From the NCBI RefSeq assembly GCF_054482595.1, contig NZ_CM137008.1: DNA of 64,000 nt; one strand, written 5' to 3'. Shown here piece after piece: positions 53,855 to 60,083 of this stretch (position 1 is its first letter; the number at the start of each line of letters is the position of its first letter). The position numbers were made by a program, and so were the translations under genes. Below the pieces are notes generated by a model. It was given only the letters and a program-made list of their open reading frames with translations, did no database searches and was not told the DNA's origin.

Positions 53855-54529
53855 TTAGGCTTTGATTTTGTATCTTCTTGGTTTTCCTGAGAAAATCACA
53901 GTACCAATTATAGAGCAATTACCGTTGATCTTAATGTAAGGCTCAGGCCAGTTTGGGTTTAACGCTTTGAGATAACGCTGTGTCCCATCTTCTATCAACC
54001 TTTTGAAGGTGGTTTCACCTGTATCGTGCATCAATGCAATAACGTCGTCACCGTGGCAGGCAGGTACTTCAGGATCGACAAAAATCATGTCTCCCGGGCG
54101 GTACTCATCAATCATTGAATCACCTATCACCCGCAAGATATAAGTCATTTCCCCACAGGGTACAGGGCAGGGATACGTTTCTGCTGTGCTCAAATCAACC
54201 TCAGAATATCCAACTTCTTTCCATGCTCCGGCCTGTACCCATGATATGACAGGGACTAATGTGATTTGTTTATTAGTGATTGAAACATCAGGTTTTTTTG
54301 TGATGTTCGTTGTCTGGTGTTCTTGATCGAGCCATCCGACAGGCAGGTCGAAACATTTTTCGATGTGTCGTGCCATGCTGTCACCGATATTTTTAGTAGC
54401 ACCATCTCCCATAAACCTGCTGGTTTGGGTTGGCTCGCGATCAATCATAGTGGCAAAGGAAGAATTCCCGCCAACACCATCTCTCAGTTTTCTGGCGTTA
54501 GACCGCCGGATGTCATGGATTGTTTTCAT
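53855..54529 (-). CDS. Phage repressor CI-like (HTH plus S24 LexA-type autopeptidase domain)
   Basis: 224 aa; C-terminal ...VIGDSMIDEYRPGDMIFVDPE... S24 Ser/Lys peptidase signature; divergent from cro-like gene. Confidence 0.88.
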   Translation of the reverse strand: MKTIHDIRRSNARKLRDGVGGNSSFATMIDREPTQTSRFMGDGATKNIGDSMARHIEKCFDLPVGWLDQEHQTTNITKKPDVSITNKQITLVPVISWVQAGAWKEVGYSEVDLSTAETYPCPVPCGEMTYILRVIGDSMIDEYRPGDMIFVDPEVPACHGDDVIALMHDTGETTFKRLIEDGTQRYLKALNPNWPEPYIKINGNCSIIGTVIFSGKPRRYKIKA

Positions 54530-54544
54530 AACGAAATTAAAACC

Positions 54545-54565
54545 CTTGTACCGTTAAGGTACAAG
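54545..54565. promoter_or_regulatory. Operator-like perfect palindrome CTTGTACC-GTTAA-GGTACAAG in cI/cro intergenic
   Basis: Read directly; GGTAC(A) half-sites recur near 54607, 53776, 53800 and 52617. Confidence 0.6.
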
Positions 54566-54569
54566 TATC

Positions 54570-54597
54570 TTGAAGGTTCATTTTAATCATGTAATAT
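54570..54597 (+). promoter_or_regulatory. Candidate pR-like sigma70 promoter (TTGAAG-N16-TAATAT) for cro-like gene
   Basis: -35/-10 hexamers adjacent to operator palindrome, GGAGG RBS downstream. Confidence 0.5.
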
Positions 54598-54619
54598 GTA
54601 TACCGGAGGTACATATTGT

Positions 54620-54820
54620 ATGAAAGCGTATTGGGACTCTTTAACCAAAGAACAGCAGGGCGAGTTGGCCGGAAAAGTTGGCTCAACACCTGGCTACTTA
54701 CGGCTGGTTTTCAATGGCTATAAAAAAGCCAGTTTTGTGCTGGCTAAAAAACTTGAGCAATGCACGTCAGGTGCAATTACGAAATCTGACTTAAGACCGG
54801 ATATCTATCCGAAAGATTAG
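54620..54820 (+). CDS. Cro/YdaS-like small HTH regulator
   Basis: 66 aa from MKAYWDSL; position and size; ORF-track start 54596 lies upstream of predicted -10. Confidence 0.75.
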   Translation: MKAYWDSLTKEQQGELAGKVGSTPGYLRLVFNGYKKASFVLAKKLEQCTSGAITKSDLRPDIYPKD

Positions 54821-54851
54821 CAGAACACTTTCAATTTTTAACCACAGAACG

Positions 54852-55415
54852 ATGAGGCTAATCGTGGGTAAGCATCACTGGAAAATAGAAAAACAGCCTG
54901 AGTGGTACATGAAAGCTGTCAGAAAAACTATCGCGGCGTTGCCGGGTGGTTACGCTGAAGCCGCTGACTGGCTGGATGTAACAGAGAACGCATTATTTAA
55001 CCGCCTTCGTGCCGATGGCGATCAGATTTTCCCGCTGGGATGGGCAATGATTTTGCAACGTGCTGGTGGAACTCACTTCATTGCTGATGCTGTGGCGCAG
55101 TCTGCAAATGGCGTCTTTGTGTCTCTTCCTGACGTCGAGGATGTGGACAACGCCGATATTAACCAGCGTCTGCTGGAAGTCATTGAACAGATTGGCAGTT
55201 ATTCAAAACAGATTCGTTCAGCAATCGAAGACGGTGTAGTGGAACCGCATGAGAAGACAGCAATTAATGACGAGCTGTACCTCTCAATTTCGAAGCTGCA
55301 GGAGCATGCAGCACTGGTCTACAAAATTTTTTGCATTTCAGAAAGTAATGACGCCCGCGAGTGTGCAGCTCCGGGCGCCGTGGCGTGTCGTGACTGTGGA
55401 GAAACTAACGCATGA
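54852..55415 (+). CDS. Hypothetical early protein in CII/YdaT position (possibly CP76-type CII-like regulator)
   Basis: 187 aa ORF directly after cro-like gene; family assignment tentative. Confidence 0.6.
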
Positions 55416-55750
55416 ACAGTTTAACAACACATTACCGTCGCTCGCAACTGATTGCACTTCCTGTACCGGGTGGAAAAGCGAAGGTGGAGTATTGCTATGC
55501 AGTGAATGTACCAGGTGACAGGGAAATTGTAACCCACAGCTTTGCAGAGTGGGCTGTGGGCGATTTCAACCGGCAAAAGGAGACAGTCCTTTGCGACAAG
55601 TTAACCGCTGGTTCAAAGATCACTACGGAGTGCCCGTCAGAGTCATTCGTTGGGAGCCGGAAACACAACGGGTTATCTACCTCCGCGAAGGCTATGAGCA
55701 TGAGTGCTTCAGCCCGCTCGAACAGTTTCGTCGTAAATTCAGGGAAATAG
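55412..55750 (+). CDS. Hypothetical protein; overlaps alternative frame 55549..55770 (possible frameshift or overlapping genes)
   Basis: ATGA-coupled to upstream gene; second frame is ATGA-coupled to downstream replication gene. Confidence 0.4.
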
Positions 55751-55759
55751 AGGTCGGTC

Positions 55760-56701
55760 ATGAGCACTAAATTAACCGGCTATGTATGGGATGGTTGCGC
55801 TGCGTCAGGCATGAAGTTATCCAGCGTGGCAATTATGGCCCGCCTGGCTGATTTCAGTAATGACGAAGGTGTGTGCTGGCCATCAATTGAAACCATTGCC
55901 CGCCAGATTGGCGCGGGGATGAGCACCGTCAGAACGGCTATCGCACGGCTGGAAGCAGAAGGCTGGTTAACTCGTAAGGCGCGTCGCCAGGGTAACCGCA
56001 ATGCGTCGAATGTTTATCAGCTTAACGTTGCGAAGCTTCAGGCAGCGGCATTTTCTCAACTGTCAGATTCTGACCCGTCAAAATCTGACGCATCAAAATC
56101 TGACCCGTCAAAATTTGATGCGTCGAAATCTGGCAAAAAAGCGGGTTTTCACCCGTCAGAATCTGGCGGGGATCCGTCAGTAAAATCAAAACATGATCCG
56201 TCAGATAAAAAAAACTCTCGTCCGGACGCTTCGCAACCGGACACGCAGATGGATGAACAGGATTTTTTAACTCGCCATCCTGATGCGGTTGTATTCAGCC
56301 CTAAAAAGCGCCAGTGGGGGACGCAGGATGATTTGACCTGCGCACAGTGGCTCTGGAAAAAAATCATCGCCCTGTACGAGCAGGCTGCCGAATGTGACGG
56401 CGAGGTGGTTCGTCCCAAAGAACCGAACTGGACAGCCTGGGCAAACGAAATTCGCCTGATGTGTGTGCAGGATGGTCGTACTCACAAACAAATCTGCGAG
56501 ATGTACAGCCGCGTCAGCCGCGATCCGTTCTGGTGCCGTAACGTGCTCAGCCCGTCGAAGCTGCGGGAAAAATGGGATGAGCTTTCCCTGCGCTTATCGC
56601 CGTCCGTAAGCACGTACACCGAAAAACGCGAAGACCCGTACTTCAAATCCAGTTACGACAACGTGGACTACAGCCAGATCCCGGCAGGATTCAGGGGGTG
56701 A
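55760..56701 (+). CDS. Phage replication initiator (O-like, N-terminal winged-helix DNA-binding domain) containing iteron array
   Basis: 313 aa; N-terminal HTH-like region; internal SDSDPSKSDASKSDPSKFDASKSG repeats encoded by DNA direct repeats. Confidence 0.7.
   Translation: MSTKLTGYVWDGCAASGMKLSSVAIMARLADFSNDEGVCWPSIETIARQIGAGMSTVRTAIARLEAEGWLTRKARRQGNRNASNVYQLNVAKLQAAAFSQLSDSDPSKSDASKSDPSKFDASKSGKKAGFHPSESGGDPSVKSKHDPSDKKNSRPDASQPDTQMDEQDFLTRHPDAVVFSPKKRQWGTQDDLTCAQWLWKKIIALYEQAAECDGEVVRPKEPNWTAWANEIRLMCVQDGRTHKQICEMYSRVSRDPFWCRNVLSPSKLREKWDELSLRLSPSVSTYTEKREDPYFKSSYDNVDYSQIPAGFRG
56062..56215. repeat. Iteron-like direct repeats (~15-nt CGTCA(A/G)AATCTGAC units, about 8 copies): candidate phage replication origin
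   Basis: Tandem near-identical units read directly inside replication gene, as in lambda O/ori. Confidence 0.6.
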
Positions 56702-57192
56702 TCATGAGTCTTTTGAATGACGTTCAGAAATTCATTGAAGCCCATCCGGGGTGTACTTCCGGAGACATTGCGGATGCTTTTGCTGGTTACTCACGGCAGC
56801 GCGTTCTGCAGTCAGCAAGCAAGTTACGTCAGAGTGGGCGTGTGGCTCACCGTTGTGAAGGGGATACACGCAGACATTTCCCGCGCCTGACTGAGAGAGC
56901 GCAGGAACTGGAACCACAACCAGTTCGAGAAACCAGATCTGTGCGCAATTTCTATGTCGGCACTAACGATCCCCGGGTGATTTTGTGCCTGACCCGCCAG
57001 GCTGAAAAACTGGAGTCCAGGGGCTTATACCGTCGTGCTGCAACGGTGTGGATGGCGGCATTCCGTGAAAGCCACTCCCAGCCAGAACGAAACAATTTTC
57101 TGGCGCGTCGTGAGCAGTGTTTACGGAAAAGCAGCAAGCGCGCTGTATCGAGTGATGAGTGGTATCTGTCAGGGAATTACGTGGGGGCGTAA
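56698..57192 (+). CDS. Hypothetical phage protein (tentative PerC/ANR-like C-terminal motif)
   Basis: 164 aa ORF coupled to neighbours; motif LESRGLYRRAATVWMAAF; no Walker motif so not a DnaC-type loader. Confidence 0.55.
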   Translation: MIMSLLNDVQKFIEAHPGCTSGDIADAFAGYSRQRVLQSASKLRQSGRVAHRCEGDTRRHFPRLTERAQELEPQPVRETRSVRNFYVGTNDPRVILCLTRQAEKLESRGLYRRAATVWMAAFRESHSQPERNNFLARREQCLRKSSKRAVSSDEWYLSGNYVGA

Positions 57193-57518
57193 TGACGACG
57201 TTAACTCAATGCCAGCAGCAGGTGCTGGATATGCTGATTTCTTATCAGAAAGAGCGTGGCTTTCCGCCAACCAATCAGGAGGTGGCAACCATGCTGGGAT
57301 ACCGTTCAGTGAATGCAGCGGTAGAGCATCTTCGCGCACTGGAGAAAAAAGGCGTCATCACGATAAAGCGTGGCGTGGCCCGGGGGATAACGCTTCATAC
57401 CGCGGTGAAGGACGACGACAGCGAGGCGGTCGGGATTATCCGCGCACTGCTTGCCGGTGAGGAAAACGCAAGGCTGCGTGCAACCCACTGGTTACATGAG
57501 AGGGGCCTGAAAGTATGA
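57192..57518 (+). CDS. LexA N-terminal DNA-binding domain protein (no peptidase domain)
   Basis: QQQVLDMLISYQKERGFPPTNQEVATMLGYRSVNAAVEHLRALEKKGVI parallels LexA N-terminal winged helix (QQEVFDLI...GMPPTRAEIA...[21 protein letters not shown]). Confidence 0.75.
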   Translation: MTTLTQCQQQVLDMLISYQKERGFPPTNQEVATMLGYRSVNAAVEHLRALEKKGVITIKRGVARGITLHTAVKDDDSEAVGIIRALLAGEENARLRATHWLHERGLKV

Positions 57519-57904
57519 AGCTGATCCTGCCTTTTCCGCCCAGCGTGAACACGTACTGGCGACACCCCAACAAAGGGGCGTTTGCTGGTAAGAGCCTGAT
57601 AAGCGCGGCGGGGCGAAAATTCCAGAGCGCGGCGTGTGCAGCAATAGTTGAGCAGTTACGTCGTCTGCCGAAACCAACGTCGGCACCTGCTTCAGTGGAG
57701 ATCGTGTTGTTTCCTCCGGATAACCGGATCCGCGATCTGGACAACTATAACAAGGCGCTGTTTGACGCCCTGACCCACGCGGGTGTGTGGGAAGACGACA
57801 GCCAGGTGAAAAGAATGTTGGTGGAGTGGGGACCGGTTATCCCGGAAGGGAAGGTCGAGATCACTATCAGTAAGTACGAGAAAACGGCGGGTGCAGCCGC
57901 CTGA
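57515..57904 (+). CDS. rusA: Holliday junction resolvase RusA
   Basis: 129 aa; LPFPPSVNTYWRH...DLDNYNKALFDALT motif typical of RusA. Confidence 0.88.
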   Translation: MKLILPFPPSVNTYWRHPNKGAFAGKSLISAAGRKFQSAACAAIVEQLRRLPKPTSAPASVEIVLFPPDNRIRDLDNYNKALFDALTHAGVWEDDSQVKRMLVEWGPVIPEGKVEITISKYEKTAGAAA

Positions 57905-57923
57905 TCAAGAGGAGAAACGAAGT

Positions 57924-58721
57924 ATGAATAATCTGATGGTCATTGATGGTATTGAAGTTCGTCGTGATGCTTATGGGCGTTACAGCCTGAACGATCTGCA
58001 CAGGGCTGCCGGTTCTCTGGATAAGCATAAGCCTGCATTCTGGCTCCGCAATGAGCAAACTGAACGTTTAATAAGCGAGTTGCAGATTTGCAACTCGGTC
58101 AATATAGAGCCAGTTAACGTTATTCGCGGCGGAAATAATCAGGGGACGTATGTCTGTAAGGAACTGGTGTATGCCTATGCAATGTGGATCAGCCCGTCAT
58201 TCCATCTGAAGGTGATCCGTACTTTCGACATGGTAACCAGCGCACCGGAAAAATTATCCGGACAGGCTGCTGACAAGATGCAGGCTGGAGTGATTCTGCT
58301 GGACTTTATGCGTCGGGAGTTAAACCTGTCTAACTCATCTGTGCTTGGGGCCTGTCAAAAACTCCAGGAGGCTGTTGGCTTACCGAATCTGGCACCGCGC
58401 TATGCCATTGATGCTCCTGCTGATGCACACGATGGCTCAAGTCGCCCCACGCTGTCGCTGAGTGCACTGCTGAAGCAGTATGGTATCCGCCTGACGGCTA
58501 ATCAGGCATATCACCAGATGGTGAAGCTGGGGATCGTTGAACAACGCGAACGATACAGCCGTACCGCGATTAACAACATCAAAAAATTCTGGTCGCTGAC
58601 AGCGAAAGGCTGCATGTTCGGCAAGAACATCACCAGTCCCGCAAATCCGCGCGAGACGCAGCCGCATTTCTTCGAATCCCGATTCCCTGAGCTGTTAAAG
58701 CTGCTCGATACCGTTCATTGA
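57924..58721 (+). CDS. KilA-N domain protein (antirepressor-like)
   Basis: MNNLMVIDGIEVRRDAYGRYSLNDLHRAAG...KPAFWLRNEQT N-terminal KilA-N signature. Confidence 0.75.
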   Translation: MNNLMVIDGIEVRRDAYGRYSLNDLHRAAGSLDKHKPAFWLRNEQTERLISELQICNSVNIEPVNVIRGGNNQGTYVCKELVYAYAMWISPSFHLKVIRTFDMVTSAPEKLSGQAADKMQAGVILLDFMRRELNLSNSSVLGACQKLQEAVGLPNLAPRYAIDAPADAHDGSSRPTLSLSALLKQYGIRLTANQAYHQMVKLGIVEQRERYSRTAINNIKKFWSLTAKGCMFGKNITSPANPRETQPHFFESRFPELLKLLDTVH

Positions 58722-58722
58722 G

Positions 58723-59718
58723 GTGACCGTGAGAGCACTACTGACCCCTGAAATTGCCCCGCGTATGGGGATCGTATTGTTCAGACCAGGTTCAGAACTG
58801 ATGCCCCTGTTTATGCAGGGGCGTGTCCTGCTGGAGCCTGAGCCGGAACGTTATTCATCTTTCGCCAGTGGTGCCGTTCCGGCAGCATCACAACCGCTGG
58901 CGGATGATCCTGCCGTTCGGGCCGTGTTCCGCAATGAGGCAGTGATCCGTCGTGCTGGTGGCGTGGAATGTCTTGAAAGCTGGTTACTTCGTGAAAAAGG
59001 CTGTCAGTGGCCTCACTCCGACTGGCACAGCGAAAACATGACCACAACGCGCCATGCGCCGGGCGCAATCCGTCTGTGCTGGCACTGCGATAACCAGTTG
59101 CGTGACCAGTTCACGGAACGGCTGGAATCAATGGCAACGGATAACTGTGCCCGCTGGGTGTTATCTGTTGTGCGCCGTGATCTCGGTTTTGATGATAGTC
59201 ACGTTGTGACAATGCCGGAACTGTGCTGGTGGCTGGTTCGTAATGACCTGGCGGATGCCTTACCGGAAAGTGCAGCCCGTAAGGCACTGAGATTACCGAA
59301 GCCTGTTGTGCCGTCTGTCACCCGGGAAAGTGACCTTGTTCCTTCGGTTCCTGCCACCAGCATCATCCAGGATAAGGCGAAAAAGGTGCTGGCGCTGAAA
59401 GTGGATCCGGAGTCACCGGAGTCTTTTATGTTACGCCCAAAACGTCGCCGCTGGGTTAATGAAAAGTACACGCGCTGGGTTAAGACACAGCCGTGTGCAT
59501 GTTGTGGAAAGCCCGCTGATGATCCCCACCACCTGATAGGCCATGGTCAGGGTGGAATGGGGACAAAAGCGCATGACCTCTTTGTGTTGCCTTTGTGCAG
59601 AAAGCATCACGACGAGCTGCATGCGGATACCGTGGCATTTGAAGAGATGTATGGCTCCCAGCTGGAGCTGATATTTCGTTTTATCGATCGTGCGCTGGCA
59701 ATTGGTGTGCTGGCCTGA
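58723..59718 (+). CDS. DUF968-family phage protein (YdfU-like)
   Basis: 331 aa; C-terminal Cys/His-rich CACCGKPADDPHHLIGHGQGGMGTKAHDLFVLPLCRKHHDELH. Confidence 0.7.
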   Translation: MTVRALLTPEIAPRMGIVLFRPGSELMPLFMQGRVLLEPEPERYSSFASGAVPAASQPLADDPAVRAVFRNEAVIRRAGGVECLESWLLREKGCQWPHSDWHSENMTTTRHAPGAIRLCWHCDNQLRDQFTERLESMATDNCARWVLSVVRRDLGFDDSHVVTMPELCWWLVRNDLADALPESAARKALRLPKPVVPSVTRESDLVPSVPATSIIQDKAKKVLALKVDPESPESFMLRPKRRRWVNEKYTRWVKTQPCACCGKPADDPHHLIGHGQGGMGTKAHDLFVLPLCRKHHDELHADTVAFEEMYGSQLELIFRFIDRALAIGVLA

Positions 59719-59720
59719 TT

Positions 59721-60083
59721 TTGTGGAGAAAGTTGATGCGTGATATGTATGAAGTAATGGATCGTTGGGGAGCTTGGGCTGCTTCAGACAATAGCGGAGT
59801 GGACTGGCAACCGGTAGCCGCTGGCTTCAAGGGACTTTTACCTCATGGCAAAAAGTCCCGGATTCAGTGTGATGATGACGAAGGCATTATGATAGACAGT
59901 TGTGTGGCTCGGTTGCGTAAATATAGGCCTGAAGAATATGAGCTAATCATTGCTCACTTTGTTATCGGTATCTCATTACGCACTATTGCGAAGAAGAGAA
60001 AATGCTCTGATGGGACTATAAGAAAAAAGTTGCAAGCTGCATTGGGATTTATTGATGCAGTTATATATATAATACATGGGTAA
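59721..60083 (+). CDS. Late-gene antiterminator Q (QuuD-type)
   Basis: 120 aa; DRWGAWAA...AAGFKGLL...KSR.QCDDD...CSDG... closely parallels QuuD-family Q proteins. Confidence 0.85.
   Translation: MWRKLMRDMYEVMDRWGAWAASDNSGVDWQPVAAGFKGLLPHGKKSRIQCDDDEGIMIDSCVARLRKYRPEEYELIIAHFVIGISLRTIAKKRKCSDGTIRKKLQAALGFIDAVIYIIHG

Follow-up and report, generated by a model that had tools for sequence, protein, structure and literature searches.

The immunity and replication module (positions 53855-60083) of an e14-like lambdoid prophage contains two overlapping reading frames on one strand. It lies within the 64,000-nt stretch of contig NZ_CM137008.1 that is called the window here. Frame A is the gene ymfM (112 aa), which follows the cII-like gene ymfL, and frame B is a gene of the DUF4222 family (59 aa), located directly upstream of a replication-initiator-like gene. 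The two are probably true dual-coding genes, in which the C-terminal tail of ymfM that is read across the DUF4222 gene would serve mainly as a path for ribosomes to the initiator gene. The established observations are the anatomy of the locus, the conservation of both open reading frames (ORFs), their codon-level signatures and the confidence of the predicted folds. The pair adds a well-supported new example to a known kind of arrangement and overturns nothing; the E. coli prophage module that carries it is very common and includes e14 of strain K-12.

Anatomy and identity of the two frames

A first-pass annotation made from the letters alone had listed the ORFs A (55412-55750) and B (55549-55770), and both are present as listed, on the same strand and in different reading frames, the relation from A to B being -1. 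The pair comprises the following features:

55412-55750, plus strand: frame A, ymfM, 112 aa, with ATG start and TAG stop (55748-55750), from the ORF list
55412-55590, plus strand: part of ymfM outside the overlap, encoding the conserved N-terminal domain (approximately residues 1-60)
55577-55582, plus strand: Shine-Dalgarno (SD) sequence AAGGAG for DUF4222, contained in the coding part of ymfM and located 8 nt 5' of TTG 55591
55591-55770, plus strand: frame B, DUF4222 gene, 59 aa, with TTG start and TAA stop (55768-55770); coding sequence (CDS) WP_001250269.1 of the prokaryotic genome annotation pipeline (PGAP)
55591-55750, plus strand: dual-coding stretch of 160 nt, with ymfM tail residues ~61-112 over DUF4222 codons 1-53
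55748-55759, plus strand: junction, with the TAG stop of frame A, the initiator SD GAGG (55750-55753) and a 6-nt spacer

The start of frame B at GTG 55549, which yields 73 aa, belongs to a mechanical ORF only (55549-55770). The real start is TTG 55591, as indicated by the SD sequence, by PGAP, by the Pfam domain, whose match begins at the residue of this TTG, and by the start codons of homologs: in the 26 related loci described below the position is occupied by ATG, GTG or TTG, with an SD-like GGAG, GGAGG or AAGGGG upstream in all of them. Since frame B starts at 55591, the true overlap of A and B is restricted to the 160 nt between 55591 and 55750.

At its 5' end, frame A shares the string ATGA (55412-55415) with the TGA stop of ymfL, as had been noted before. 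At its 3' end, the TAG stop is located 9 nt 5' of the initiator ATG, touches the GAGG SD and lies in the initiator's own frame. Termination-reinitiation is expected where a stop codon overlaps the next start or lies no more than about 10 nt from it, and such a distance is found at both ends, so that frame A is positioned for coupling to both neighbors. Frame B, which had been described as ending in an ATGA overlap with the initiator, does not do so. Its TAA stop (55768-55770) lies 8 nt past the initiator ATG, the overlap counted from ATG 55760 amounts to 11 nt (ATGAGCACTAA), and the ATGA string at 55760-55763 has its TGA in a third frame, different from both A and B. The proposal that each frame is coupled to a different neighbor thus holds for the joining of frame A to its upstream gene by ATGA; for the rest, A also ends 9 nt before the initiator, which B overlaps by 11 nt.

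Frame A is 95-96% identical over 112 aa to YmfM of the K-12 prophage e14 (AAC74232.1 / YMFM_ECOLI) and matches phrog_1170 over positions 1-112 of 112 (E = 1.7e-70); by identity and length it is a member of YmfM. No relative of frame A was found in Pfam, NCBIfam, PADLOC or PDB, and NCBIfam holds no model for YmfM. Frame B affiliates with the Pfam family DUF4222 (PF13973) with 68.7 bits (cut-off 27) and E = 3e-19 over profile positions 1-52 of 53, and also matches phrog_1343. The homologs of DUF4222 are standalone proteins of 55-80 aa, distributed across Enterobacteriaceae and beyond. Membership of frame B in this family is indicated by the match to the full-domain hidden Markov model, the small size, the standalone organization, the fixed start and purifying selection.

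The annotation of the locus is split. GenBank and UniProt give only ymfM for K-12; RefSeq/PGAP gives only the DUF4222 CDS in all three annotation tables examined, K-12 derivatives included. In one such derivative (locus L002, NZ_CP062239.1 1199278-1199636) PGAP omits the experimentally studied ymfM, and WP_001250269.1 alone is annotated. Annotators of phages chose frame A in mEp390, Eeyore and 720R4, frame B in ST147-VIM1phi7.2 and neither in others, and some phage annotations carry the label YmfM on frame A. This conflict touches thousands of genomes.

Conservation, codon choice and composition

A scan with the DUF4222 profile of one genome per species retrieved 20 loci from Atlantibacter, Citrobacter, Enterobacter, Kosakonia, Raoultella and Silvania, with frame B identities of 71-86%. 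Together with the window, K-12 and four phages they form a set of 26 e14-type loci, which fall into 13 clusters below 85% nucleotide identity. Both ORFs are kept in the homologs, the identity of DUF4222 ranging between 71 and 88% in the e14-type loci and being about 62% in four SfV-type loci (see below). Frame A is open across B in all 26 e14-type and all four SfV-type loci. In the e14-type loci it starts with an ATG 167-179 nt 5' of the B start, with the exception of a GTG in L003 and L004 and of L008 and L014, which are cut by the contig end, and it stops at +157; codons inserted in B shift this position to +160 or +163. Frame +2 is in most cases closed across B after 5-11 nt.

Frame B is intact in all e14-type loci but one. 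In L014 71-253 (Kosakonia quasisacchari contig 45) a premature TAG is present at DUF4222 codon 46, and frame A reaches its usual stop; no other locus has a broken B next to an unbroken A. The broken B may be a pseudogene or a sequencing error.

Codon choice in B depends on its context in a manner that keeps frame A free of stops. Where a Val, Leu or Ile codon of B precedes a codon starting with A, it always ends in T or C, as seen at column 4 (22 of 22), column 18 (22 of 22) and column 28 (20 of 20). Column 16 provides a control within the gene: before A the codon is GTC in five of five cases, and GTA or GTG occur six times, before C only. At column 31, where it is harmless to frame A, CTG is used 12 times out of 20. 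In all 26 loci the stop of frame A (TAG or TAA) arises from a rare B codon, ATA or TTA, together with a following codon starting with G or A. When codons were resampled given the protein of B and the local codon usage, the probability of an open frame A was 2-12% per locus, and of 3770 windows taken from real genes of these loci, 9.4% had a +1 frame that was open over 52 codons. Both frames are hence open in diverged homologs beyond chance. Third codon positions of B differ by 0.415, compared with 0.425 in the adjacent, non-overlapped initiator gene, and by 0.45-0.6 between clusters; because the third positions of B are as diverged as those of the initiator, the lineages are nearly independent, close to saturation at synonymous sites.

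Distant DUF4222 genes served as a control. In none of the five examined does an upstream ORF run through in the +1 frame. Serratia BZS1, Elizabethkingia EKP1, phiNP and CharmingMan have this frame closed, and in Yersinia YeP2 it is open but lacks a start, so that DUF4222 does not by itself entail openness. Only 18 of the 26 loci have an open antisense frame, a frame that is permissive by nature. The window contains an antisense ORF of 90 aa in it (55495-55767, minus strand, in register with the DUF4222 codons), which was considered as a candidate gene and rejected; with this openness it is most likely a by-product of sense coding.

Frame B is under strong purifying selection, with pairwise differences of 0.14/0.11/0.43 at codon positions 1/2/3 and an amino acid identity of 81%. 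Its AlphaFold2 model (predicted local distance difference test, pLDDT, 86.8) is a small beta-barrel with a short helix, for which fold searches returned generic SH3/Tudor/DUF1653-like barrels only; searches with the YmfM model gave no match. The N-terminal domain of YmfM is kept in homologs down to 46% identity, with the third codon position as the most variable. M1, Q12, P17, G20, Y29 and V49 are invariant across three otherwise different module families, all of which begin with MNSL. The predicted fold spans residues ~10-66, with pLDDT values of 74-84 for residues 10-60. The tail, i.e. the last ~52 residues, has an amino acid identity of 50% between loci and a pLDDT of ~35 and is probably disordered, judging from the model. 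In the overlap, purifying selection on amino acids is thus present in B and absent from the tail of A.

The composition of the tail is constrained. Compared with synonymous resampling conditional on openness, it is less hydrophobic (13-25% vs 29-32%) and richer in Ser, Thr, Ala, Gly and Pro than predicted, both in 12 of 12 representatives. Third positions of B are enriched in C (217 vs 162 expected) and depleted of T (117 vs 164 expected), which renders the tail hydrophilic; B shows this bias even with its many rare codons. Selection keeps the openness, the stop position and the hydrophilic composition of the tail, and the residues are free to vary. The locus is a clean and widely conserved case of overprinting, in which a frame is kept open, hydrophilic and terminated without conservation of residues. 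Methods that search for overlapping genes could usefully be tested on it, as could translational coupling through a nested gene.

In 25 of the 26 loci, exactly 9 nt separate the frame A stop from the start of the next gene (18 nt in L011). In all 26 this gene is in the frame of A, and it belongs to at least five different N-terminal initiator families. Frame A and the initiator share one frame because the initiator ATG is embedded in the conserved His-Glu codons of B (C ATG AG), and as they do so, the single stop of A is what prevents a fusion of YmfM and initiator. The junction T(A/G)(A/G)AGG-N6-ATGAGC (window 55748-55762) is common to the loci L003-L022 and L108-L111, in which the downstream genes are from at least five unrelated initiator families and the upstream N-terminal modules from three. 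This sequence looks like a conserved module boundary for mosaic recombination.

In the SfV-type loci (SfV, ST64B, a Stx2a phage and an E. coli prophage) the stop of A is absent and the frame continues into an Ash domain (PF10554, 1.9e-18); in longer versions it also reaches a Rha domain. On its way it passes over an intact, unannotated DUF4222 ORF (Pfam 9.5e-14), with differences of 0.086/0.066/0.316 at codon positions 1/2/3, so that unannotated DUF4222 genes are revealed inside the Ash/Rha genes of SfV, ST64B and Stx phages. The frame A ORF of the Stx2a phage begins only 17 nt 5' of the ATG of B. Since these relatives have no ATG 3' of the DUF4222 overlap and ahead of the Ash domain, at least a part of frame A must be translated to obtain the Ash/Rha protein, unless a non-ATG start is used.

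Citrobacter phage phiNP (L114 705-905) contains an unannotated ORF of 66 aa (MSNLTANSQRSQLRALPVRGG...) homologous to the N-terminal domain of YmfM. An ATGA couples it to the homolog of ymfL, and its end lies ahead of the Rha gene. The DUF4222 gene of phiNP is located ~700 nt beyond this ORF, without an overlapping ORF. Families consisting of the N-terminal module only are also present in PHROG (phrog_20047 and phrog_26022, with 63 and 68 positions).

Readings of the overlap and of the ymfM tail

The first-pass annotation had left three explanations side by side: genuine overlapping genes, a sequencing indel in a single gene and a programmed frameshift. Genuine overlapping genes are supported by the retention of both ORFs in homologs and by the context-dependent, stop-avoiding codon choice. 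The splitting of one gene by an indel from sequencing or assembly, or by a frameshift of recent origin that made it a pseudogene, shares with the data just the superficial look of two overlapping frames and is refuted by the comparison of loci. An identical sequence (100%) is found in a complete RefSeq genome, the layout occurs in ~2000 complete E. coli genomes and, in two frames, in 20 other species, and DUF4222 is standalone family-wide. Furthermore, 80 IMG/VR loci were reduced to 41 correctly located haplotypes, which are near-identical and hence useful against indels and not for diversity; all 41 keep 112 aa in A and 59 aa in B with no indel. The homologs had also been proposed as a check for a single fused ORF. 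Such ORFs are rare. The few database ORFs that join DUF4222 to other frames have 102-275 aa, mostly come from read-level assemblies and differ in their junctions. The fused candidates P0030, P0053, P0060, P0065, P0090, P0212 and P0233 differ in the junction, some with several frame changes, and were rejected as errors or sporadic mutants.

A programmed -1 frameshift from A into B, producing a ~118-aa fusion of the YmfM N-terminal domain with DUF4222, would agree with the -1 relation of the frames, with the CAA_AAG_G at 55574-55580 that adjoins GGAG in the window and with the rare database ORFs of 102-123 aa that join both parts. These fused ORFs, however, show the differing junctions or several frame changes that are typical of assembly errors. 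The window has no X_XXY_YYZ heptamer, and the sporadic heptamers in other loci are not conserved (26 loci scanned); the A_AAG near the B start is missing in K-12 (CAGAAG) and in most loci. Stops in the frame of B are located 6-27 nt 5' of its start in L013, L010, L014, L015 and K-12. Frame B has a conserved start and SD of its own, in line with the standalone state of DUF4222 throughout the family. RNA folds of 55540-55660 (z = +0.35) and 55680-55800 (z = +1.14) were no better than those of shuffled sequences, i.e. no stable structure that could stimulate frameshifting was found in either segment. Frameshifting is thus very unlikely.

If DUF4222, perhaps together with a short upstream ORF, was the only functional gene, the 112-aa ymfM would be an annotation artefact, its tail left open through chance or codon bias or inherited from ancestors of the SfV type, which need the frame for Ash/Rha. 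Such a view would concur with the annotation of DUF4222 alone by PGAP, with the lack of relatives of A in Pfam, NCBIfam and PDB, with the unconserved sequence of the tail and with the non-significant within-gene shuffle at individual loci. It appears improbable to us, as frame A is open in 26 of 26 loci against an expectation of 2-12%, stops are avoided depending on context, and the stop itself is fixed by rare codons. These signatures hold across 13 clusters with synonymous sites near saturation. In addition, the antisense frame is open in 18 of 26 loci only, and the +1 frame is closed in four of five distant DUF4222 genes.

A more serious alternative is that the tail is a functional part of YmfM, for instance a disordered C-terminal region required for stability, localization or division inhibition. 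The shift of the tail towards hydrophilic and small residues exceeds that of synonymous resampling in 12 of 12 representatives, and the many rare codons of B leave translational optimisation as no explanation of the bias. The corresponding segment in the SfV type forms the N-terminal region or linker of the Ash/Rha protein, and expression of the ymfM ORF causes filamentation (bioRxiv 10.1101/2020.11.19.390815). The clone used there, however, also carries the SD, the start and 53 of the 59 codons of DUF4222. The tail has an identity of 50% and a pLDDT of ~35, the synonymous sites of B are as free as those of its neighbor, and the N-terminal module exists without a tail in phiNP, phrog_20047 and phrog_26022. 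We consider a function of the tail as a peptide possible, though somewhat unlikely.

We therefore favor dual coding with the tail mainly as a ribosome path, and infer from the sequence both the translation of the two frames in vivo and the coupling role of the tail. DUF4222 would be made by internal initiation from its own SD and TTG in parallel with ymfM, whose translation would be coupled to that of ymfL through the ATGA. Ribosomes entering at ymfL/ymfM would be carried by the tail across DUF4222 to the ribosome binding site of the initiator. Termination-reinitiation at the stop of A would then tie initiator expression to the cII-like gene, and in the SfV type the ribosomes would read straight into Ash/Rha. 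The tail may be kept hydrophilic so as to be harmless. Such a bridge would represent a coupling ORF that runs through another gene and ties the translation of the initiator, or of Ash/Rha, to a cII-like gene.

Several points weigh against dual coding with a bridging tail. With a reasonable SD of its own (GAGG, 6-nt spacer) and no RNA structure seen to occlude it, the initiator has less need of coupling. A conservative shuffle of the codons within B is weak for single loci (P = 0.08-0.93 per locus), and its product of ~1e-7 over 13 clusters is overstated, since the loci share ancestry and combined probabilities ignore kinship. No suppression of the synonymous rate in B was observed that would indicate a constraint of A on residues (0.415 vs 0.425), and with no constraint on its residues the tail may matter as a peptide or as a ribosome path only. 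The N-terminal module of phiNP exists without any tail. Lastly, a multi-omics study of the SOS response reports the ymfM transcript and has no row for the YmfM protein (PMC11002266).

SfiC, genomic setting and comparison with known systems

According to Ansari et al. (bioRxiv 10.1101/2020.11.19.390815; J Bacteriol 2021), ymfM (b1148) of e14 in K-12 is the gene of SfiC, a division inhibitor induced by the SOS response, which had gone unidentified for 35 years before that report. Expression of the ymfM "open reading frame" from pBAD24 led to filaments without Z-rings, and a double deletion of sulA and ymfM reduced SOS filamentation (bioRxiv 10.1101/2020.11.19.390815). Earlier library clones contained ymfL(142-185), ymfM and ymfN(1-92). 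The ymfM ORF, which from the wording "the open reading frame" we take to be the cloned fragment, contains the SD, the start and 53 of 59 codons of DUF4222, corresponding to 52 of 53 Pfam positions, and ymfM deletions remove them. As clones carry and deletions remove DUF4222 too, the ymfM experiments cannot assign the phenotype to one frame. A second frame, tags or frame-specific mutants are not mentioned in the Ansari et al. preprint, Burke 2013 or Mediati 2018, and literature searches on DUF4222, the ymfM overlap and ribosome profiling of ymfL retrieved no paper on the overlap or on the function of DUF4222. We tentatively propose, as a rather doubtful option, that the SOS division block of e14 is caused wholly or partly by the 59-aa DUF4222 protein, with the tail of ymfM as ribosome bridge. 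If so, a K-12 gene function would be reassigned and DUF4222 would obtain its first phenotype.

The other features of the module are arranged around the pair in the following order:

minus strand: ymfK, LexA/cI-like repressor, first in the module
after ymfK and ahead of ymfL: ymfT, Cro/YdaS-like
54864-55415 (ORF from 54852), plus strand: ymfL, cII/CP76-like regulator (Pfam Phage_CP76, 1.8e-13; NCBIfam phage_reg_YmfL, 1.5e-49)
55760-56701, plus strand: replication-initiator-like helix-turn-helix protein, 313 aa (Pfam HTH_36, 4.3e-11; weak DnaD_N and RP-C matches)
3' of the HTH_36 initiator-like gene: PerC-like gene, LexA-like gene, RusA and KilA-N gene

The coordinates of ymfL are those of PGAP, carried over from the 100%-identical locus L001. 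In phage annotations the initiator is labelled replication protein O or primosomal protein. The order of the cro-like ymfT, the cII-like ymfL, ymfM/DUF4222 and the replication initiator is that of the early-right operon of the prophage. A stretch of 471 nt around frames A and B is 100% identical to a complete E. coli chromosome. Of 5426 complete E. coli genomes, 2003 match it over 80% or more of its length, and it is also present in the phages SfII, SfIV and others. Inside the initiator gene, at 56048-56214, there is an iteron-like array in which the 15-bp unit TCAAAATCTGACCCG, or a variant of it, recurs about six times at intervals of 15 bp, together with two GATCCGTCAG repeats; the array encodes a DPSKSDASKSDPSKFD stretch. 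By analogy with lambda O, it is probably the phage origin within its own initiator gene.

One of the closest known systems is ymfM of e14 in K-12, which is the gene of frame A, with a length of 112 aa, an identity of 95-96% and the neighbors ymfK, ymfT and ymfL. The two loci differ in the initiator, which is intact in the window and fused or truncated as ymfN/oweE in K-12. Similar to the DUF4222/phrog_1343 members of Serratia BZS1, Yersinia YeP2 and Elizabethkingia EKP1, the gene of the window is located directly 5' of a replication-initiator gene. In contrast, these distant members stand alone and end in an ATGA overlap with the initiator, and an upstream ORF running through DUF4222 is restricted to the enterobacterial e14/SfV clade.

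Overprinted gene pairs on the same strand are well known from phages, e.g. Rz/Rz1 of lambda and the overlapping genes of phiX174 and MS2. With these the window shares two frames on one strand, of which one is conserved and the other fast-evolving and compositionally odd, as well as an inner SD and start. Unlike in those pairs, the genes here overlap only in part, the inner gene is the one with the conserved frame, and the overprinted tail is attached to interchangeable N-terminal modules and, in relatives, fused to Ash/Rha. Translational coupling by stop/start overlap or by termination-reinitiation at ATGA junctions is likewise established. The ATGA of ymfL/ymfM, the frame A stop 9 nt before an ATG, beside an SD, and the frame B stop 8 nt past that ATG resemble these systems. 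Unlike the usual case, the putative coupling ORF of the window would run for 160 nt through the frame of another gene. Programmed -1 frameshifting, as in dnaX, IS elements and the tail-assembly chaperones G/GT of phages, has in common with the window the -1 overlapping frames within an operon of a phage. The window differs from those systems in having no conserved slippery site or stimulator and a downstream frame with a start of its own, and its upstream frame extends well beyond the beginning of the overlap.

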